IMG/VR virus record: IMGVR_UViG_648276645_000001
DNA from: a virus
Lineage: Duplodnaviria; Heunggongvirae; Uroviricota; Caudoviricetes
Strand: one strand, 5' to 3'
DNA: 7,736 nt
Part shown: piece after piece, positions 1 to 7,736 of the stretch
Position numbering within the stretch: the first letter of the stretch is position 1
Layout: each line of letters opens with the position of its first letter
Translations under genes and position numbers: made by a program
The notes under the pieces: generated by a model
Database searches by the model: none
What the model was told of the DNA's origin: nothing
Seen by the model: only the letters and a program-made list of their open reading frames with translations

Positions 1-1284
1 TTACTTCTTCGCCTCTGCAACCACTTTACTACCCACGCCGCGGTTATTGTATTCCCACATGCGGTTGTAGTTAGTGTCATTCAGATTGCGCTGTATTTCG
101 TCGTTATCATCTACGCTGCCGGTATTACCCGCAAACGGACGATTAGAGATCACCGCATCGGCCCACGGTTTAGCCGTGTTAAAACCTTCGTTGATGGCGC
201 TATCACGGATCACCACCTGACCGTTGGTATTGGCATCAACATCCAGCGAGCGGCCCAGTTGCGCCACACCATCACCGAAAGCATTGAAACGGCTGTTTAC
301 GGCGAGGAAACCGTAGTAAATGTTGGACAGCGTAGCCGGTGCAAACACATACGCTTCTTGCTGAGTACGTGAGTTCACCACGCGGAATTCGGTGTTATCG
401 AACACCACTGCGCCGCGACCAGAAACGATATCCACATCCCCTTCAATGTAGCTGTTGGTCACCAGCGTACGCGGCTGACGATTTGTTTCCAGACGGTTCT
501 GCACACCGCTGTTGGTGACAAAGAAGGTGTTCTGACGACCGAGAATGTTAACGTTGTTAATCTGTACCTGGTCACCATCAGTACGCAGTGCCACCGCCGG
601 ATGGTTACCTGCATCTACGCTATCGCCCAGCGTGTTTTCGATGGTCAGATTTTGCAGTTGCAGGCCATTGTTTTGTGACCAGAAGACCGCAGAGCAGAGA
701 ACACCGATACTGTCGCTGCGTTTGCTCTGGCAGCTATCGTACATATACCACGCTGGTTTACCTGGCATATATTTGCCGCGCGGGTTGACGTCGTGACGCC
801 AGTCGGCAGGGCTCATGCCACCATCAAGGGAAAGCCCAATCTTCACATCAATCGGTTTTTCACCTGTACCGTACAGAGTAATTCCACCCGGAGCGGCAGG
901 GACATATACCGTTCCCTGATACTCACCAGGCATCACGGCAATATACTGGCGCTTGTTGGTACGCTTGATAATTGCCGCATCTACCGCCGCCTGAATCGTG
1001 GTATGCGTTACACCTTGAGTGCCCGCCGGGCCGACAACAAAGTCAGGTTGCGCAGGCAGGGTAATCGGGGAAGGATTCCACGCTGCAGCACCTGGTGTCA
1101 GGGATGCAAAATAGTGTTGAGCATCGAAATTCTGCGCTTCTTTTGCCGACAGAATCGGGCGAGAAGAGGTACCAGGCGCGGTTTGATCAGAAGGACGTTG
1201 ATCGGGCGGGGTTGAGCTACAGGCGGTCAGCGTCACGCCAAAAGCCAATGCCAGCGCCAGACGGGAAACTGAAAATGTGTTCAC
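1..1284 (-). CDS. ybhC: YbhC, pectinesterase-family outer-membrane lipoprotein (putative acyl-CoA thioesterase); host chromosomal gene flanking attB
   Basis: Complete 427-aa ORF. N-terminal signal peptide with lipobox LTAC (MNTFSVSRLALALAFGVTLTACSS). Translation matches my memory of E. coli YbhC, whose gene lies immediately next to lambda attB. Window starts exactly at its stop codon. Confidence 0.92.
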   Translation of the reverse strand: MNTFSVSRLALALAFGVTLTACSSTPPDQRPSDQTAPGTSSRPILSAKEAQNFDAQHYFASLTPGAAAWNPSPITLPAQPDFVVGPAGTQGVTHTTIQAAVDAAIIKRTNKRQYIAVMPGEYQGTVYVPAAPGGITLYGTGEKPIDVKIGLSLDGGMSPADWRHDVNPRGKYMPGKPAWYMYDSCQSKRSDSIGVLCSAVFWSQNNGLQLQNLTIENTLGDSVDAGNHPAVALRTDGDQVQINNVNILGRQNTFFVTNSGVQNRLETNRQPRTLVTNSYIEGDVDIVSGRGAVVFDNTEFRVVNSRTQQEAYVFAPATLSNIYYGFLAVNSRFNAFGDGVAQLGRSLDVDANTNGQVVIRDSAINEGFNTAKPWADAVISNRPFAGNTGSVDDNDEIQRNLNDTNYNRMWEYNNRGVGSKVVAEAKK

Positions 1285-1330: not shown

Positions 1331-1345
1331 GCTTTTTTATACTAA
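1331..1345. other. attL core (15-bp common core O of lambda site-specific recombination) at the host/prophage junction
   Basis: Exact GCTTTTTTATACTAA at 1331-1345. Left flank (gaagcct) reads like the bacterial B arm; right flank (gttggcattataaaaaagcattgc...) reads like the lambda P' arm, giving the BOP' arrangement. Confidence 0.9.
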
Positions 1346-1370
1346 GTTGGCATTATAAAAAAGCATTGCT

Positions 1371-1422
1371 TATCAATTTGTTGCAACGAACAGGTCACTA
1401 TCAGTCAAAATAAAATCATTAT
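1371..1422. promoter_or_regulatory. P' arm protein-binding sites: IHF site H' and three Int arm-type sites P'1-P'3
   Basis: TATCAATTTGTTG at 1371-1383 fits the IHF consensus WATCAANNNNTTR. Three consecutive arm-type-like decamers: caggtcactat (1391-1401), cagtcaaaat (1402-1411), aaaatcattat (1412-1422). Last site overlaps the int stop codon as in lambda. Confidence 0.75.
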
Positions 1423-2489
1423 TTGATTTCAATTTTGTCCCACTCCCTGCCTCTGTCATCACGATACTGTGATGCCATGGTGTCCGACTTATGCCCGAGA
1501 AGATGTTGAGCAAACTTATCGCTTATCTGCTTCTCATAGAGTCTTGCAGACAAACTGCGCAACTCGTGAAAGGTAGGCGGATCCCCTTCGAAGGAAAGAC
1601 CTGATGCTTTTCGTGCGCGCATAAAATACCTTGATACTGTGCCGGATGAAAGCGGTTCACGACGAGTAGATGCAATTATGGTTTCTCCGCCAAGAATCTC
1701 TTTGCATTTATCAAGTGTTTCCTTCATTGATATCCCGAGAGCATCAACATGCAATGTTGTTGGGATGGCAATTTTTACGCCTGTTTTGCTTTGCTCGACA
1801 TAAAGATATCCATCTACGATATCAGACCACTTCATTTCGCATAAATCACCAACTCGTTGCCCGGTAACAACAGCCAGTTCCATTGCAAGTCTGAGCCAAC
1901 ATGGTGATGATTCTGCTGCTTGATAAATTTTCAGGTATTCGTCAGCCGTAAGTCTTGATCTCCTTACCTCTGATTTTGCTGCGCGAGTGGCAGCGACAGG
2001 GTTTGTTGTTATATGGCCTTCAGCTATTGCCTCTCGGAATGCATCGCTCAGTGTTGATCTGATTAACTTGGCTGACGCCGCCTTGCCCTCGTCTATGTAT
2101 CCATTGAGCATTGCCGCAATTTCTTTTGTGGTGATGTCTTCAAGTGGAGCATCAGGCAGACCCCTCCTTATTGCTTTAATTTTGCTCATGTAATTTATGA
2201 GTGTCTTCTGCTTGATTCCTCTGCTGGCCAGGATTTTTTCGTAGCGATCAAGCCATGAATGTAACGTAACGGAATTATCACTGTTGATTCTCGCTGTCAG
2301 AGGCTTGTGTTTGTGTCCTGAAAATAACTCAATGTTGGCCTGTATGGCTTCAGTGATTGCGATTCGCCTGTCTCTGCCTAATCCAAACTCTTTACCCGTC
2401 CTTGGGTCCCTGTAGCAGTAATATCCATTGTTTCTTATATAAAGGTTAGGGGGTAAATCCCGGCGCTCATGACTTCGCCTTCTTCCCAT
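1419..2489 (-). CDS. int: Integrase (lambda Int, tyrosine recombinase)
   Basis: 356-aa ORF starting MGRRRSHERRDLPPNLYIRNNGYYCYRDPRTGKEF, which I recognise as lambda Int. Catalytic-region motifs present (HELRSL...R, HLLGHKSDTMASQYRDD with the Tyr nucleophile). Sits next to attL and overlaps xis by 23 bp as in lambda. Confidence 0.97.
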   Translation of the reverse strand: MGRRRSHERRDLPPNLYIRNNGYYCYRDPRTGKEFGLGRDRRIAITEAIQANIELFSGHKHKPLTARINSDNSVTLHSWLDRYEKILASRGIKQKTLINYMSKIKAIRRGLPDAPLEDITTKEIAAMLNGYIDEGKAASAKLIRSTLSDAFREAIAEGHITTNPVAATRAAKSEVRRSRLTADEYLKIYQAAESSPCWLRLAMELAVVTGQRVGDLCEMKWSDIVDGYLYVEQSKTGVKIAIPTTLHVDALGISMKETLDKCKEILGGETIIASTRREPLSSGTVSRYFMRARKASGLSFEGDPPTFHELRSLSARLYEKQISDKFAQHLLGHKSDTMASQYRDDRGREWDKIEIK

Positions 2490-2685
2490 TTCTGATCCTC
2501 TTCAAAAGGCTACCTGTTACTGGTCGATTTAAGTCAACCTTTACCGCTGATTCGTGGAACAGATATTCTCTTCCATCCTTAACCGGAGGAGGGAATATCC
2601 TGCATTCGCGCACCCATCGACGAACTGTTTCAAGGCTTCTTGGGCGTCGCTGGCGAGCGTTCCACTCCTGAAGTGTCAAGTACAT
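2467..2685 (-). CDS. xis: Excisionase (lambda Xis)
   Basis: 72-aa ORF MYLTLQEWNARQRRPRSLETVRRWVRECRIFPPP..., recognised as lambda Xis; 3' end overlaps the int start. Confidence 0.95.
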   Translation of the reverse strand: MYLTLQEWNARQRRPRSLETVRRWVRECRIFPPPVKDGREYLFHESAVKVDLNRPVTGSLLKRIRNGKKAKS

Positions 2686-2711
2686 CGCAAAGTCTCCGCA
2701 ATTACACGCAA
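2670..2711 (-). promoter_or_regulatory. pI-like promoter (cII-activated int promoter) with TTGC-N6-TTGC cII-binding repeats
   Basis: Minus strand reads TTGCGTGTAATTGCGGAGACTTTGCGATGTACTTGACA. TTGC tetrads at 2708-2711 and 2698-2701 (plus coordinates), overlapping the xis start as in lambda pI. Boundaries approximate. Confidence 0.6.
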
Positions 2712-2733
2712 GAAAAAACCGCCATCAGGCGGC
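2711..2733 (-). terminator. Putative intrinsic terminator hairpin (GC stem with 4-nt loop, then a T6 run on the minus strand)
   Basis: Minus strand CCGCC-TGAT-GGCGG followed by TTTTTT. Stem is only 5 bp. Overlaps the orf55 stop and sits just upstream of the pI -35 region. Lambda counterpart not certain (possibly a tL-series terminator). Confidence 0.4.
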
Positions 2734-2892
2734 TTGGTGTTCTTTCAGTTCTTCAATTCGAATATTGGTTATGTCTGCATGTGCTATCTGCGCCCATATC
2801 ATCCAGTGGTCGTAGCAGTCGTTGATGTTCTCCGCTTCGATAACTCTGTTGAATGGCTCTCCATTCCATTCTCCTGTGACTCGGAAGTGCAT
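2725..2892 (-). CDS. Small hypothetical protein (lambda orf55-like), 55 aa
   Basis: Not in the supplied ORF track (under 60 aa). Hand translation of the minus strand gives MHFRVTGEWNGEPFNRVIEAENINDCYDHWMIWAQIAHADITNIRIEELKEHQAA. Size and position (about 40 bp upstream of xis) match the small ORF annotated between xis and ea8.5 in lambda. Confidence 0.65.
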   Translation of the reverse strand: MHFRVTGEWNGEPFNRVIEAENINDCYDHWMIWAQIAHADITNIRIEELKEHQAA

Positions 2893-2980
2893 TTATCATC
2901 TCCATAAAACAAAACCCGCCGTAGCGAGTTCAGATAAAATAAATCCCCGCGAGTGCGAGGATTGTTATGTAATATTGGGT

Positions 2981-3262
2981 TTAATCATCTATATGTTTTG
3001 TACAGAGAGGGCAAGTATCGTTTCCACCGTACTCGTGATAATAATTTTGCACGGTATCAGTCATTTCTCGCACATTGCAGAATGGGGATTTGTCTTCATT
3101 AGACTTATAAACCTTCATGGAATATTTGTATGCCGACTCTATATCTATACCTTCATCTACATAAACACCTTCGTGATGTCTGCATGGAGACAAGACACCG
3201 GATCTGCACAACATTGATAACGCCCAATCTTTTTGCTCAGACTCTAACTCATTGATACTCAT
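2981..3262 (-). CDS. ea8.5: Ea8.5 protein (lambda early accessory protein, Cys/His-rich)
   Basis: 93-aa ORF MSINELESEQKDWALSMLCRSGVLSPCRHHEGVYVDEG...CPLCTKHIDD, recognised as lambda Ea8.5. AAGGAG RBS 7 nt upstream on the minus strand. Confidence 0.9.
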   Translation of the reverse strand: MSINELESEQKDWALSMLCRSGVLSPCRHHEGVYVDEGIDIESAYKYSMKVYKSNEDKSPFCNVREMTDTVQNYYHEYGGNDTCPLCTKHIDD

Positions 3263-3453
3263 TTATAAACTCCTTGCAATGTATGTCGTTTCAGCTAAAC
3301 GGTATCAGCAATGTTTATGTAAAGAAACAGTAAGATAATACTCAACCCGATGTTTGAGTACGGTCATCATCTGACACTACAGACTCTGGCATCGCTGTGA
3401 AGACGACGCGAAATTCAGCATTTTCACAAGCGTTATCTTTTACAAAACCGATC

Positions 3454-3765
3454 TCACTCTCCTTTGATGCGAATGCCAGCGTCAGACATCATATGCAGAT
3501 ACTCACCTGCATCCTGAACCCATTGACCTCCAACCCCGTAATAGCGATGCGTAATGATGTCGATAGTTACTAACGGGTCTTGTTCGATTAACTGCCGCAG
3601 AAACTCTTCCAGGTCACCAGTGCAGTGCTTGATAACAGGAGTCTTCCCAGGATGGCGAACAACAAGAAACTGGTTTCCGTCTTCACGGACTTCGTTGCTT
3701 TCCAGTTTAGCAATACGCTTAACAGAAAGGCCGGGAAATACCCAGCCTCGCTTTGTAACGGAGTA
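3454..3765 (-). pseudogene. ea22: ea22 C-terminal fragment (5'-truncated); fused in frame to antisense O sequence, giving a 179-aa chimeric ORF (3454..3993)
   Basis: C-terminal ~90 codons (KRIAKLESNEVREDGNQFLVVRHPGKTPVIKHC...DAGIRIKGE) read as real protein and lie 192 bp from ea8.5, the lambda spacing. The N-terminal ~90 codons (MFVRSSFGLLAVTTACCLLRL...) are low-complexity and are the reverse strand of O coding sequence. Upper boundary is approximate (junction between about 3720 and 3772). Confidence 0.65.
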
Positions 3766-3766
3766 G

Positions 3767-4021
3767 ACGAAAGTGATCGCACCTAACGATATCCGCCTGA
3801 TGCGTGAACGTGACGGACGTAACCACCGCGACATGTGCGTGCTGTTCCGCTGGGCCTGCCAGGACAACTTCTGGTCCGGTAACGTGCTGAGTCCGGCCAA
3901 ACTCCGCGACAAGTGGACCCAGCTCGAAATCAACCGTAACAAGCAACAGGCAGTCGTGACAGCCAGCAAACCAAAACTCGACCTGACAAACACAGACTGG
4001 ATTTACGGGGTGGATCTATGA
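3767..4021 (+). pseudogene. O: Replication initiator O, C-terminal fragment only (P-interaction domain); N-terminus and ori absent
   Basis: Open frame begins just after an in-frame TAG at 3764-3766. Translation ...IAPNDIRLMRERDGRNHRDMCVLFRWACQDNFWSGNVLSPAKLRDKWTQLEINRNKQQAVVTASKPKLDLTNTDWIYGVDL matches my memory of the lambda O C-terminus. Stop overlaps the P start (ATGA). No ori iterons or AT-rich region upstream. Confidence 0.85.
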
Positions 4022-4719
4022 AAAACATCGCCGCACAGATGGTTAACTTTGACCGTGAGCAGATGCGTCGGATCGCCAACAACATGCCGGAACAGTACGA
4101 CGAAAAGCCGCAGGTACAGCAGGTAGCGCAGATCATCAACGGTGTGTTCAGCCAGTTACTGGCAACTTTCCCGGCGAGCCTGGCTAACCGTGACCAGAAC
4201 GAACTGAACGAAATCCGCCGCCAGTGGGTGCTGGCTTTCCGGGAAAACGGGATCACCACAATGGAACAGGTTAACGCAGGAATGCGCGTAGCCCGTCGGC
4301 AGAATCGACCATTTCTGCCATCACCCGGGCAGTTTGTTGCATGGTGCCGGGAAGAAGCATCCGTTATCGCCGGACTACCAAACGTCAGCGAGCTGGTTGA
4401 TATGGTTTACGAGTATTGCCGGAAGCGAGGCCTGTATCCGGATGCGGAGTCTTATCCGTGGAAATCAAACGCGCACTACTGGCTGGTTACCAACCTGTAT
4501 CAGAACATGAGGGCCAATGCGCTTACTGATGCGGAATTACGCCGTAAGGCCGCAGATGAGCTTGTCCATATGACTGCGAGAATTAACCGTGGTGAGGCGA
4601 TCCCTGAACCAGTAAAACAACTTCCTGTCATGGGCGGTAGACCTCTAAATCGTGCACAGGCTCTGGCGAAGATCGCAGAAATCAAAGCTAAGTTTGGGCT
4701 GAAAGGAGCAAGTGTATGA
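4018..4719 (+). CDS. P: Replication protein P (DnaB helicase loader)
   Basis: 233-aa ORF MKNIAAQMVNFDREQMRRIANNMPEQYDEKPQVQQVAQIINGVFSQLL..., recognised as lambda P with the lambda length; translationally coupled to O' and ren. Confidence 0.96.
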   Translation: MKNIAAQMVNFDREQMRRIANNMPEQYDEKPQVQQVAQIINGVFSQLLATFPASLANRDQNELNEIRRQWVLAFRENGITTMEQVNAGMRVARRQNRPFLPSPGQFVAWCREEASVIAGLPNVSELVDMVYEYCRKRGLYPDAESYPWKSNAHYWLVTNLYQNMRANALTDAELRRKAADELVHMTARINRGEAIPEPVKQLPVMGGRPLNRAQALAKIAEIKAKFGLKGASV

Positions 4720-5006
4720 CGGGCAAAGAGGCAATTATTTATTACCTGGGGACGCATAAGAGCTTCTGTGCGCAGGACGTTGCCGCGGTAACAGGCGCAA
4801 CAGTAACCAGCATAAATCAGGCTGCGGCTAAAATGGCACGGGCAGGTCTTCTGGTTATCGAAGGTAAGGTCTGGCGAACGGTGTATTACCGGTTTGCTAC
4901 CAGGGAAGAACGGGAAGGAAAGATGAGCACGAACCTGATTTTTAAGGAGTGTCGCCAGAGTGCCGCGATGAAACGGGTATTGGCGGTATATGGAGTTAAA
5001 AGATGA
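4716..5006 (+). CDS. ren: Ren protein (protects against Rex exclusion)
   Basis: 96-aa ORF MTGKEAIIYYLGTHKSFCAQDVAAVTGATVTSINQAAAKMARAGLLVIEGK..., lambda Ren-like. AAGGAG RBS at 4699-4704; start overlaps the P stop. Confidence 0.92.
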   Translation: MTGKEAIIYYLGTHKSFCAQDVAAVTGATVTSINQAAAKMARAGLLVIEGKVWRTVYYRFATREEREGKMSTNLIFKECRQSAAMKRVLAVYGVKR

Positions 5007-5030
5007 CCATCTACATTACTGAGCTAATAA

Positions 5031-5066
5031 CAGGCCTGCTAGTAATCGCAGGCCTTTTTATTTGGG
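5031..5066 (+). terminator. Rho-independent terminator, lambda tR2-like
   Basis: 8-bp stem AGGCCTGC (5032-5039) pairing with GCAGGCCT (5048-5055), 8-nt loop, followed by TTTTTATTT. Located between ren and ninB, where tR2 sits in lambda. Confidence 0.8.
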
Positions 5067-5079
5067 GGAGAGGGAAGTC

Positions 5080-5520
5080 ATGAAAAAACTAACCTTTGAA
5101 ATTCGATCTCCAGCACATCAGCAAAACGCTATTCACGCAGTACAGCAAATCCTTCCAGACCCAACCAAACCAATCGTAGTAACCATTCAGGAACGCAACC
5201 GCAGCTTAGACCAAAACAGGAAGCTATGGGCCTGCTTAGGTGACGTCTCTCGTCAGGTTGAATGGCATGGTCGCTGGCTGGATGCAGAAAGCTGGAAGTG
5301 TGTGTTTACCGCAGCATTAAAGCAGCAGGATGTTGTTCCTAACCTTGCCGGGAATGGCTTTGTGGTAATAGGCCAGTCAACCAGCAGGATGCGTGTAGGC
5401 GAATTTGCGGAGCTATTAGAGCTTATACAGGCATTCGGTACAGAGCGTGGCGTTAAGTGGTCAGACGAAGCGAGACTGGCTCTGGAGTGGAAAGCGAGAT
5501 GGGGAGATCGGGCTGCATGA
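5080..5520 (+). CDS. ninB: NinB (Orf-family recombination mediator)
   Basis: 146 aa from ATG 5080 (MKKLTFEIRSPAHQQNAIHAVQQILPDPTKP...), lambda NinB-like with matching length. RBS GGGAGAGGGAAG upstream. The track ORF from 5062 uses an upstream TTG that I regard as not the real start. Confidence 0.92.
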   Translation: MKKLTFEIRSPAHQQNAIHAVQQILPDPTKPIVVTIQERNRSLDQNRKLWACLGDVSRQVEWHGRWLDAESWKCVFTAALKQQDVVPNLAGNGFVVIGQSTSRMRVGEFAELLELIQAFGTERGVKWSDEARLALEWKARWGDRAA

Positions 5521-6044
5521 CTATCAAATCAAATACGCCAGCACACGACAAGGACTGCTGGCAAACGCCGCTTTGGCTTTTTGATGCACTGGATATTGAG
5601 TTTGGATTCTGGCTGGATTCGGCAGCGAGCGACAAAAATGCTCTGTGTGCTCACTGGCTAACTGAGGCCGACGACGCGCTCAATTCTGAGTGGGTAAGCC
5701 ACGGTGCAATCTGGAATAACCCACCGTACAGCAATATCAGGCCGTGGGTGGAAAAAGCCGCTGAGCAGTGCATACAACAGCGACAGACGGTAGTGATGCT
5801 TGTGCCAGAGGATATGTCAGTCGGATGGTTCAGCAAGGCTCTGGAGAGTGTCGACGAAGTTCGCATTATCACTGATGGACGGATTAATTTTATCGAACCA
5901 TCGACGGGGCTGGAGAAGAAGGGAAACAGCAAAGGCTCCATGCTGCTGATTTGGCGACCGTTCATCAGTCCTCGACGGATGTTTACTACCGTATCCAAAG
6001 CGGCATTGATGGCGATCGGGCAGGGCGTCAGGAGGGCGGCATGA
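5517..6044 (+). CDS. Phage-type DNA N6-adenine methyltransferase (Dam family, orphan)
   Basis: 175 aa from ATG 5517, overlapping the ninB stop (ATGA): [34 protein letters not shown]... Contains the NPPY motif (WNNPPYSN) typical of N6-adenine methyltransferases. Occupies the position held by ninC in lambda. No restriction endonuclease gene nearby. Confidence 0.85.
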
Positions 6045-6217
6045 GGCGACAGCGACGAAGTTTCACCGACATCATCTGCGAAAACTGCAAATACCTTCCA
6101 ACGAAACGCTCCAGAAATAAACGCAAGCCAATCCCAAAAGAATCTGACGTAAAAACCTTCAATTACACAGCTCACCTGTGGGATATCCGGTGGCTAAGAT
6201 ATCGTGCGAGGAAATGA
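6041..6217 (+). CDS. ninE: NinE
   Basis: 58 aa from ATG 6041: [58 protein letters not shown], lambda NinE-like. GGAGGG RBS at 6031-6036; start overlaps the methyltransferase stop. Confidence 0.85.
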
Positions 6218-6219
6218 CA

Positions 6220-6561
6220 ATGGATTATTCACAGTTAAGTGATTTTGAAATTAACAGAATGGTAGGAGACATAATTTTTAAAGGCCTTTGGGCAAGTAAA
6301 CCGGAAACATCAGGGAATAACACCAACAAATGGTATTACGGAAATGCTGATACAACTTTTGAGCCATTAAATCATTTGCCTGACTACTGCAATGATCCGA
6401 GCGCTTCATGGCCGATTATTGAGAAATACAGGATTTCTATCTTAGACCAGTTAACTGAATGGTGTGTGGATGCAAAAGGCGTAAGCCCAATATTTGATAC
6501 CAGACCTCTCCGCGCCGCCATGATTGTCTTTCTCCTGATGCAGGAGGCCAATAATGCTTAG
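6220..6561 (+). CDS. Hypothetical nin-region phage protein, 113 aa (possibly DUF2591-like; function unknown)
   Basis: [116 protein letters not shown]. Start chosen at ATG 6220 because GAGGAA (6208-6213) is 6 nt upstream; the ATG at 6214 abuts the RBS. Family assignment is from memory only. Confidence 0.6.
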
Positions 6562-6748
6562 CCCATCTCAATCCCTTCAATACCTGAAAGGAAGCATAGA
6601 GCGGGCTTCAATGTGCACAGAGTGGATTCTATCTAGGTTTAGCGCATACAGAAGATTGCCGGTAAAGGGCATGCCAAGCAAGTCGATGCTGCATATGCAA
6701 AAGAATGCGCGCTGGAAGGTATGGCGAGAACACAGGTTATCTGGCTGA
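6554..6748 (+). CDS. NinF-like small protein with a divergent C-terminus (mosaic), 64 aa
   Basis: Strong AGGAGG RBS at 6542-6547, 6 nt before the ATG. First ~20 residues ([18 protein letters not shown]) resemble the NinF N-terminus I recall from lambdoid phages. The remainder ([46 protein letters not shown]) lacks the Cys-rich motif of NinF. Overlaps the preceding ORF by 8 bp. Confidence 0.5.
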
Positions 6749-6767
6749 AAGAGGGGGTTATTAAGGC

Positions 6768-7130
6768 GTGAATACCTACAGCATCACATTACCCTGGCCT
6801 CCGAGCAATAACCGCTACTACCGGCATAATCGCGGGCGCACGCACATCAGCGCAGAAGGGCAGGCATACCGTGATAACGTCGCCCGAATCATTAAAAACG
6901 CAATGCTGGATATCGGCCTGGCTATGCCTGTGAAAATCCGCATTGAGTGCCACATGCCGGATCGCCGTCGCCGTGACCTGGATAATCTGCAAAAAGCCGC
7001 TTTTGACGCACTCACTAAAGCAGGTTTCTGGCTGGATGATGCTCAGGTCGTTGATTACCGCGTTGTGAAGATGCCTGTTACCAAAGGTGGGAGGCTGGAA
7101 CTGACCATCACCGAAATGGGGAATGAATGA
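6768..7130 (+). CDS. rusA: RusA Holliday-junction resolvase (endodeoxyribonuclease RusA)
   Basis: 120-aa ORF with GTG start: [97 protein letters not shown]..., recognised as RusA of the DLP12/phage-82 type. RBS AGAGGGGG upstream. Confidence 0.92.
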
Positions 7131-7267
7131 TGTTTGAGTTTAATATGGCAGAACTTCTTCGCCACCGCTGGGGGCGTCTGCGCTTATATCGTTTCCCCGG
7201 TTCTGTTTTGACCGATTACCGAATACTGAAGAATTACGCCAAAACCCTGACAGGAGCAGGAGTATGA
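7127..7267 (+). CDS. ylcG: YlcG-like small protein (46 aa)
   Basis: Not in the ORF track (under 60 aa). Hand translation from ATG 7127 gives [46 protein letters not shown], stop TGA 7265-7267. Start overlaps the rusA stop. Matches the small gene found between rusA and the Q-like gene in DLP12-type prophages. Confidence 0.75.
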
Positions 7268-7352
7268 AGTCAGAGATAACAATCAACTAATACTGTTTTG
7301 TTGATTTTTGCTTGTAATTGGCGTTTTGGTCTGATTTTTGTGGAGTAAGTTG

Positions 7353-7736
7353 ATGCGTGATATTCAGATGGTTCTTGAGCGTTGGGGAGCGTGGGCGGCT
7401 AATAATCATGAAGATGTGACCTGGTCGTCCATTGCCGCCGGTTTTAAGGGATTAATTCCTTCAAAAGTAAAATCTCGCCCGCAATGTTGTGACGATGACG
7501 CGATGATCATTTGCGGGTGCATGGCCCGTCTGAAAAAGAACAACAGCGATTTGCACGATTTATTAGTAGATTATTATATAGTCGGTATGACATTCATGTC
7601 ACTGGCAGGTAAGCATTGCTGCTCTGATGGTTATATCGGGAAAAGGTTACAAAAGGCTGAGGGCATAATTGAAGGGATGTTAATGGCATTAGATATCCGG
7701 TTAGAGATGGATATCGTTGTTAATAACTCTAATTAA
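7353..7736 (+). CDS. Q: Late-gene antiterminator Q (QuuD / phage-82-type Q)
   Basis: 127 aa from ATG 7353 (GGAG RBS at 7342-7345): [62 protein letters not shown]..., recognised as QuuD-like Q. Stop TAA is the last three bases of the window. Confidence 0.9.

Follow-up and report, generated by a model that had tools for sequence, protein, structure and literature searches.

The DNA considered here is a 7,736-nucleotide viral record (IMGVR_UViG_648276645_000001; called the window throughout, at its full length) that carries, between positions 3454 and 4021, a truncated lambda ea22 gene close to a truncated O gene. This raises the question of whether such an arrangement is native to some lambdoid phage or is the scar of a deletion and, if a scar, how the DNA came to be broken there. 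An earlier note, made from the sequence alone, had proposed that a single deletion junction joins ea22 directly to the C-terminal part of O, creating a chimeric open reading frame (ORF). The interval very probably holds two scars of illegitimate deletion, in a defective prophage of lambdoid type at attB-lambda of Escherichia coli H736, an origin of the breaks at TA palindromes included. The window matches H736 contig GL883782.1 (GCA_000176535.2) at 7,736 of 7,736 bases (100% identity), and contains the left 6.4 kb, on the ybhC side, of an 8.6-kb lambdoid prophage remnant at this site.

Comparison with the lambda genome (BLAST against NC_001416) yields three blocks: window 1331-3721 corresponds to lambda 27724-30114 (99.4% identity), 3720-3785 to lambda 31258-31323 (66 bp, 97% identity) and 3783-5520 to lambda 39347-41084 (98.6% identity). 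The blocks meet at two junctions, J1 and J2, and the features concerned are the following.

3454..3721, minus strand: 3' fragment of ea22 (codons 95-182 and stop; lambda 29847-30114)
3720..3721: J1, with the core TA common to ea22 CGCT[TA]CTCC and orf60a CGGA[TA]ACAG
3722..3782, minus strand: island of orf60a (DUF1317), codons 11-31 in the native frame, within the aligned block 3720-3785 (lambda 31258-31323)
3783..3785: J2, with the core CTA common to orf60a GCGC[CTA]CCCGG and O GGG[CTA]ACGAT
3785..4021, plus strand: 3' fragment of O (codons 222-299 and stop), without the N-terminal DNA-binding part and ori
3454..3993, minus strand: chimeric ORF of 179 amino acids with a GTG start (residues 1-70 antisense O, 71-91 Orf60a, 92-179 Ea22)
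3773..4021, plus strand: O-frame ORF of 82 amino acids (4 junction-derived codons, then O residues 222-299)

J1 joins ea22 codons 95-182 to a 62-bp island of orf60a, and J2 joins this island to the last 78 codons of O; in place of the direct ea22/O join proposed earlier, two junctions flank a piece of orf60a/DUF1317 (3720-3785). Colinearity with lambda begins where the earlier note placed it, at 1331 (the attL core), and the alignment through ea22 ends at 3721 rather than at about 3760. The O frame has the TAG noted at 3764-3766 and is open from 3773 to 4021, followed by an intact P as had been read, with genuine O confined to the last 78 codons (222-299) instead of some 85 residues. The deletion at J1 removed 1,145 bp (lambda 30115-31259), comprising the 5' part of ea22 and orf61/63, and that at J2 removed 8,026 bp (lambda 31324-39349), comprising exo, bet, gam, kil, cIII, ea10, ral, sieB, N, rexB, rexA, cI, cro, cII and the 5' part of O. 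The total of 9,171 bp agrees with the loss of about 9 kb deduced from lambda gene order. The predicted absence of repressor, pL/pR and origin is likewise borne out: cI, pL/pR, N, cro, cII, the N-terminal part of O and ori are all lost, the retained part of O being lambda 39347-39585 and all four iterons (lambda 39034-39118) having gone with J2. Inspection of the breakpoints for microhomology, as the earlier note had advised, gives TA at J1 and CTA at J2.

The minus-strand ORF of 179 residues exists, with its GTG start, and the C-terminal half of ea22 is present in it as described, residues 92-179 (88 amino acids) being identical to lambda Ea22 residues 95-182. The N-terminal stretch of about 90 residues that had been taken as antisense O is so for 70 residues; the other 21 (residues 71-91) are identical to Orf60a residues 11-31, in the native Orf60a frame. 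DUF1317 matches residues 68-93 (E = 1.8e-10; profile positions 8-33 of 60), and this 60-residue domain is only partly present, so the ORF has no full DUF1317/Orf60a domain; nor is it a member of the Ead/Ea22-like family, since Pfam gives DUF1317 only and PF13935 (Ead_Ea22) is absent. A protein search across 5.8 billion clusters returned one near-full match, the 126-residue 'protein ea22' of H736 (P0001), which is the same ORF called from an internal ATG (3454-3834), while the remaining 1,452 of 1,453 matches cover only the C-terminal half (49%) and belong to homologues that carry PF13935. Exact look-up of the 179-residue sequence found no record, the gene caller having used the internal ATG. 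Because the ORF lacks the Ead/Ea22 N-terminal domain and starts in antisense O, the name 'protein ea22' in H736 is misleading, and the chimeric ORF should not bear this annotation. Expression of a fusion protein, entertained by the earlier note, is unsupported: a promoter scan of both strands found no sigma-70-like promoter in 3200-4800, and pL, the native promoter of ea22, has been lost. In all likelihood the chimeric ORF arose as a by-product of the joins. The 82-residue ORF is another, with no promoter or homologue supporting a function, and is no lambda O initiator, the N-terminal iteron-binding part and the iterons being gone.

The arrangement is read as a scar, as the earlier note had it, rather than as a module order because neither the phage records nor any of 5,426 complete E. 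coli genomes contain a sequence that crosses the interval, because the 26-mer of J1 is absent from 185,579 GTDB species-representative genomes and from IMG/VR, and because the O fragment comes without the origin. Lambdoid phages are highly mosaic, the orf60a and ea22 pieces both stand in their native frames, and H736 is annotated with a 'protein ea22', all of which would suit a native order of truncated ea22, orf60a and O in some lambdoid phage, with the 179-residue ORF a genuine gene. Yet the first 70 codons of that ORF read the opposite strand of an O sequence that has 98.6% identity to lambda, all of its protein matches but H736's own are limited to the Ea22 C-terminal 49%, and the O fragment is without its N-terminal part and iterons, so that the arrangement cannot replicate. 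No related phage with the full 179-residue protein was found, only the 126-residue call of H736 itself exceeding the Ea22 half, and no native ea22/O adjacency was found among phage records of other lambdoid phages; a native order is hardly credible and is contradicted already.

The scars belong to a more extensive reduction. In H736 the remnant spans 8,600 bp between two att cores, the second beside ybhB, in the order int, xis, ea8.5, truncated ea22, truncated orf60a, truncated O, P, ren, ninB and, further on, Q, porin and truncated holin; cI, cro, N, ori and the genes for lysis, head and tail are all missing. Its place at a phage attachment site between duplicated att cores, and a gene order colinear with that of lambdoid phages but short of essential modules, make it a cryptic lambdoid prophage. 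A third junction, J3, lies outside the window (locus L130, reverse complement 16257-16496) and was defined against the holin of ev099 and the b-region of HK97/Chlobot: a holin gene cut after GCTGGG[TA] is joined to a b-region of HK97/Chlobot type at GCGAG[TA]TTGAATG, about 220 bp before the attR core, with loss of the lysis, head, tail and b-region genes from holin up to that point. With 8.6 kb left by J3, the remnant is much more reduced than had been inferred from the window. The view that it is locked in place is unsupported, however: Int, Xis, the attL and attR cores and the P arm are all present, and for that reason excision would, to judge from the sequence, be possible in principle, if Int and Xis can be expressed without cII or pL.

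Several routes to such junctions were rejected. No IS (insertion sequence) DNA, whether an element or an end of one, lies at J1, J2 or J3, which discounts IS-mediated deletion, and Int-promoted, att-dependent deletion is discounted by endpoints in ea22, orf60a and O, none of which resembles the core GCTTTTTTATACTAA. Deletion by short homology or slippage was also set aside: J1 shares 2 bp and J2 shares 3 bp, and across the roughly 25 events described below the core is always TA, with extra matches at the chance rate.

The ancestor would have been a lambda-like prophage with a lambda-type int-to-ea22 arm, an O-P-ren-ninB segment and an ev099-type nin/Q/porin/holin arm, and would have lost 1.1 kb from ea22 to orf60a (J1), 8.0 kb from orf60a to O (J2) and the DNA from holin to near attR (J3). 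The J2 deletion removes killing and control functions (kil, N, cro, pL, pR, cI, the N-terminal part of O and ori), and a deletion of this type may have become fixed because it spares the host from death at induction. The scar itself is ordinary prophage decay of a known kind, that of a cryptic lambdoid prophage like DLP12, and is a further example of a lysogen neutralizing its prophage, with the killing, control and origin block lost and int/xis and nin/Q kept.

DLP12 of K-12 resembles the H736 remnant in the deletion of the recombination, immunity and origin block, in the retention of int and in the presence of a small island (306 bp of exo) between two joins. Both joins, xisD'/exoD' and exoD'/peaD', are of the TA type (genes intD, xisD', exoD', peaD', renD), and the first of them uses the same TA at the orf60a/exo end as J2 (lambda 31322), keeping the opposite side. 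Unlike the H736 remnant, DLP12 lies at argU, has its joins at xis/exo and exo/P with no O left, contains emrE, ybcK and IS elements, and keeps its lysis genes. A remnant at attB-lambda itself occurs in UTME-7 and wlxctx60 (L001/L002), with a left arm 99.7-99.8% identical to the window up to ea22. As in H736, truncated ea22 is joined to truncated O by a TA-type junction ([TAA], in the iteron region), whereas here 138 nt of ea22 (cut earlier) and 483 nt of O (cut later) are kept, with no orf60a island; the same remnant (6000-16700) has also lost 313 bp inside P by a TA deletion and 3.3 kb by a TTA deletion that truncates ybcK, and its right arm is like that of DLP12. As the breakpoints differ from those of H736, the deletions are independent. 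From these cases we infer that repeated loss of the kil/N/cI/cro/O block fits selection for surviving induction.

Prophages at the icd site (Z1323CEC0014, Z217-2, RM10410) share with H736 the O breakpoint, at the very nucleotide of J2 (lambda 39348-39349), and differ in having another integrase and attachment site and, in most, exo as the left partner, the exo side CCCGG[TA]CGCT being joined to the O nucleotide of J2. RM10410 and one IMG/VR contig of the icd lineage have J2 itself, with flanks that differ from the window within 10 nt of the join; its presence in RM10410 was established by direct sequence comparison, an 81-bp query being uninformative (its halves align separately). Among 120 O-bearing IMG/VR loci, truncated exo joined to truncated O was the only other partnership found at the O breakpoint. 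In three icd-site loci (L005, L006, L007; 12755-12767), a ybcN-like gene is joined through GGTA to a tail-tip (J-like) gene, with loss of Q, lysis, head and tail genes.

That RM10410 and an IMG/VR contig have J2 but lack J1 means that J2 can exist by itself, and bears on the number of events behind the H736 interval. A single ea22-to-O deletion, with the 62-bp orf60a piece captured as filler during repair and J1 and J2 thus one event, is rather unlikely on that account and also because the island is colinear with lambda in correct orientation and map order, as two nested deletions predict. In its favour are the shortness of the island, the same TA-type structure of both junctions, the finding of no genome with J1 alone, and DLP12, which likewise keeps its small exo island between two TA joins.

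With two deletions preferred, attention turns to their common structure, TA being the common core of all the hand-defined junctions. Lambdoid loci were compared by all-vs-all megablast and the exact microhomology was recorded wherever one sequence lacked at least 60 bp of another; with two IMG/VR scans, the set was enlarged to 315 loci (2.86 Mb), biased to E. coli prophages carrying O, rusA or exo. The events fall into classes: IS insertions with the expected target duplications, recognizable by their terminal repeats (an internal control); module swaps where sequences at gene boundaries are conserved; a small number of slippage deletions at 9-12-bp repeats (9-10 bp for deletions of 68 bp and 107 bp); and, as the dominant class, deletions of 0.3-12 kb in which TA is the sole shared sequence. 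This last class holds 14 events with exactly TA and 9 with TA and 1-3 chance bases, which with J1 and J3 of H736 make about 25, against about 12 events that are neither TA nor IS. Thirteen TA events are each confined to one unrelated locus. A third matching base beside TA occurs at about the chance rate, which argues against annealing. TA deletions are carried by L001, L005-L008, L068, L090, L155, L169, L178, L192, L195, L203, L222, L235, L240, L294, L306 and the H736 locus L130. One further difference turned up between L255 and L003 near lambda 33500 (L003 6500-6503), where L255 has a 1,250-bp insert flanked by TCGA and CCTGCAGGGGGGGGGG...CCCCCCCCCCTGCAGG; these flanks are G/C-tailed PstI linkers, and this IMG/VR contig is therefore a cloning construct in a lambda backbone, not a natural phage.

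Around the TA, the consensus is C-S-G-D-TA-H-C-S-G, a degenerate 10-bp palindrome. It was seen in the first 22 parental sites, with C at -4, G at -3 and -2, G/T at -1 and the mirror image on the right (single-position p about 3e-4), and again in a hold-out set of 22 sites, where, counted outward from the core, G occupies position 2 in 27/44 half-sites (p = 8e-7) and position 3 in 18/44, and C occupies position 4 in 26/44 (p = 3e-7) and position 1 in 2/44. Single sites are used repeatedly: lambda 31322 (orf60a; window 3784-3785) in at least five events (H736, RM10410, DLP12, L203, L169), lambda 39348 (O) in three and one site in P in two, while lambda 35261, the top-scoring site with the first motif, was then seen in two hold-out deletions. 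The orf60a site reads GCGCCTACCCGG and the O site GGGCTAACGAT. Re-use of single TA sites would account for the identical J2 in H736 and RM10410 despite backgrounds differing by 5%. In a control of 81 P2-like loci (1.0 Mb) put through the same pipeline, about 11 deletions showed varied microhomologies (among them GGGA, GTT, AA, TT and CACCCGCGT), two of which contain TA and none of which is bare TA. No description of a TA/palindrome signature with re-used hot spots was found in the literature searched, which left most subscription journals outside it.

Such a pattern could in principle be an artefact of chance or sampling, produced by few independent events, shared ancestry or pipeline bias: several junctions share one site, there is relatedness among the carriers in some cases (L005/6/7/124/129; L001/2), and the motif is weak and the events number in the tens, not hundreds. 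This is very unlikely given the 13 events each found in one unrelated locus, a hold-out set that repeated both the TA core and the flanking motif (p below 1e-6 at two positions), a pipeline that recovers the target duplications of IS elements correctly and shows no excess of TA among P2-like loci, and the double appearance of the pattern in DLP12 of K-12, a reference-quality sequence.

Several points nevertheless weigh against the reading of the interval as paired deletion scars arising at TA palindromes. The selective advantage of the deletion is one that we infer, and from one genome the order and independence of J1 and J2 are not establishable. J2 is shared with RM10410 and one IMG/VR contig, whose background is different (flanks 94.6% identical), so that it may have arisen more than once or been transferred by recombination. 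As regards the signature, the P2 control yielded few events, and the motif, being degenerate, has its C at position 4 in only about 59% of half-sites; roughly one in three of the short-microhomology indels falls outside the TA class, and the loci are biased towards O-, rusA- or exo-bearing E. coli prophages. The laboratory deletion nin5 of lambda, which resembles the H736 scars as a large loss of non-essential lambda DNA, is also of a different type from the H736 junctions, lying between 10-bp direct repeats CACGAACCTG as expected of slippage or short homology.

Each junction reads as a base from the left site, TA and a base from the right site, the flanking bases differing between the partners. 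Tentatively, and with confidence just short of even, most large lambdoid deletions are attributed to a sequence-preferring, lambdoid-specific break-and-rejoin activity that acts at a TA palindrome and re-uses hot spots, the specificity being suggested by P2-like prophages, which are without the pattern. Each junction would then be a join of two TA dinucleotides inside the degenerate palindrome, with J1, J2 and J3 of H736 as three instances: a symmetric protein may cut both strands 2 bp apart, or bluntly between T and A, after which the left and right ends of two sites would be rejoined. A TA/palindrome footprint would not be expected from annealing of random microhomology. Its source could be the phage, in the form of a recombinase or nuclease, or the host, in the form of a topoisomerase drawn in during abortive induction.

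Among phage-borne candidates, a serine recombinase that uses pseudo-sites, such as a Pin-type invertase or the YbcK of DLP12-type prophages, would account for several features. Serine recombinases exchange strands at a 2-bp core that is identical in both partners, and bind as dimers on inverted half-sites, which would match the exact 2-bp core, the chance-level identity of the flanks, the palindromic flank and the re-used sites, as well as the restriction of the signature to lambdoid and not P2-like loci. The ybcK gene is present in DLP12, in icd-site prophages and, truncated, in UTME-7, yet, in the locus sequences analysed, it lies in cis in only 9 of 22 carriers, and it is missing from the H736 remnant. 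Conservation that extends only 4 bp from the core falls far below that of a large serine recombinase site, and a palindromic TA core leaves the reaction without directionality, an unusual property in these enzymes that counts against them here; this origin is judged improbable.

Topoisomerase-mediated illegitimate recombination is known from the gyrase subunit-exchange model and from recombination promoted by vaccinia topoisomerase I in E. coli, and resembles the TA joins in that a cleavage-religation enzyme links unrelated sites with little or no homology. A host type IA topoisomerase (Topo I or III) might make paired single-strand cuts on both strands of a melted palindrome and reseal the ends with another site. 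The extreme supercoiling that an induced lambdoid prophage undergoes would promote this, and a host enzyme would explain carriers that share no phage recombinase. Both strands of the consensus read C-N-N-N-TA, and cutting before T on both would leave 2-nt TA ends with 5'-linked protein, whose religation to a second site would give exactly the observed products. Cleavage by E. coli Topo I falls at TA, and a C lying four nucleotides upstream is conserved (Sutormin et al. 2022, PMC9352719). The sites found here resemble this motif in having a C a few nucleotides upstream of a TA; however, the published oligonucleotide GCGTTTTTTTCTTCATTATTTTTCGCG implies C-N-N-TA with the cut between T and A, a register one nucleotide shorter, and the C found here 4 nt upstream of TA on both strands fits a type IA register only if the cut precedes T. 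Moreover, the published motif is asymmetric and AT-rich and its C is strictly required, whereas the present flanks are G/C-rich and have the C in about 59% of half-sites. If the mechanism were a general one of the host, P2-like prophages should bear its mark as well, and they do not; a topoisomerase origin is considered unlikely, on a par with the serine recombinase.

Other enzymes fit less well and were rejected. Gyrase and Topo IV cut with a 4-bp stagger that puts the crossover at the edge of a 4-bp block, and with unlike flanking bases in the two partners this cannot yield the order of left base, TA and right base seen here; the published gyrase consensus also differs. RusA cuts 5' of CC at Holliday junctions, which implies a 4-bp offset and a need for homology. 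The lambda hot spot of IS30 (33244-33498) has another sequence, and an IS would stay at the junction. Elements of the IS630/mariner type target CTAG or an AT-rich context and are not known to excise cleanly from bacterial genomes, and the DNA deleted here consists of ordinary phage genes. RpnA has no sequence specificity in vitro.

Whatever the enzyme, the TA breakpoints suggest that a specific DNA-cutting activity drives lambdoid prophage decay. If so, the way in which prophages are domesticated becomes accessible to experiment, the recurrence of identical deletions among unrelated strains does not have to mean common descent, and deletion scars become predictable and can be recognized automatically in genome annotation.

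The rest of the window consists of the bacterial flank, the left arm up to ea22, and the genes to the right of O. Domain-bearing genes were assigned through Pfam and the others through the gene calls of the source genome.

1..1284, minus strand: ybhC, a host ORF for a pectinesterase-family lipoprotein (99.95% identity to the ybhC region of K-12), bordering attB-lambda on the chromosome
1331..1345: attL core GCTTTTTTATACTAA, where lambda colinearity starts; the same core 8,600 bp away in H736 is attR
1419..2489, minus strand: int, intact (356 amino acids, 353/356 identical to lambda Int)
2467..2685, minus strand: xis, intact (72 amino acids, 71/72 identical to lambda Xis)
2725..2892, minus strand: homologue of lambda orf55 (54/55 amino acids identical)
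2981..3262, minus strand: ea8.5 (93/93 amino acids identical to lambda)
4018..4719, plus strand: P (helicase loader), intact and full length (231/233 amino acids identical to lambda P), its start overlapping the O stop
4716..5006, plus strand: ren (91/96 amino acids identical to lambda Ren)
5080..5520, plus strand: ninB/orf (146/146 amino acids identical to lambda), where lambda-type colinearity ends
5457..7736, plus strand: nin region of ev099/Chlobot type, with a Dam-family methyltransferase gene first
6041-6217, plus strand: ninE, in this nin region
6220-6561, plus strand: NinX, followed by a ninF-like gene, in the nin region
6768-7130, plus strand: rusA, in the nin region
7127-7267, plus strand: ylcG, in the nin region
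7353-7736, plus strand: Q-like antiterminator, the last gene of the nin region

The H736 chromosome flanking attB-lambda is 99.95-100% identical to K-12 MG1655 across 7 kb, and the host is therefore a very close relative of K-12. Phages of the ev099 and Chlobot-like type are 99% identical to the window across 3783-7736, the match continuing to the right of ninB. The longest ORF of the Dam-family methyltransferase, which starts from GTG at 5457, shares 64 nt with the end of ninB and is the 195-residue call used in H736, the ev099 methyltransferase being annotated at 528 nt (175 amino acids); the true start is probably downstream of this GTG. The final base of the window is the final base of the Q-like gene, stop codon included, and the porin and truncated holin of H736 lie beyond it. 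The right arm of the remnant (methylase, NinX, rusA, Q, porin) is not derived from lambda, and is 92-98% identical to DLP12 of K-12.

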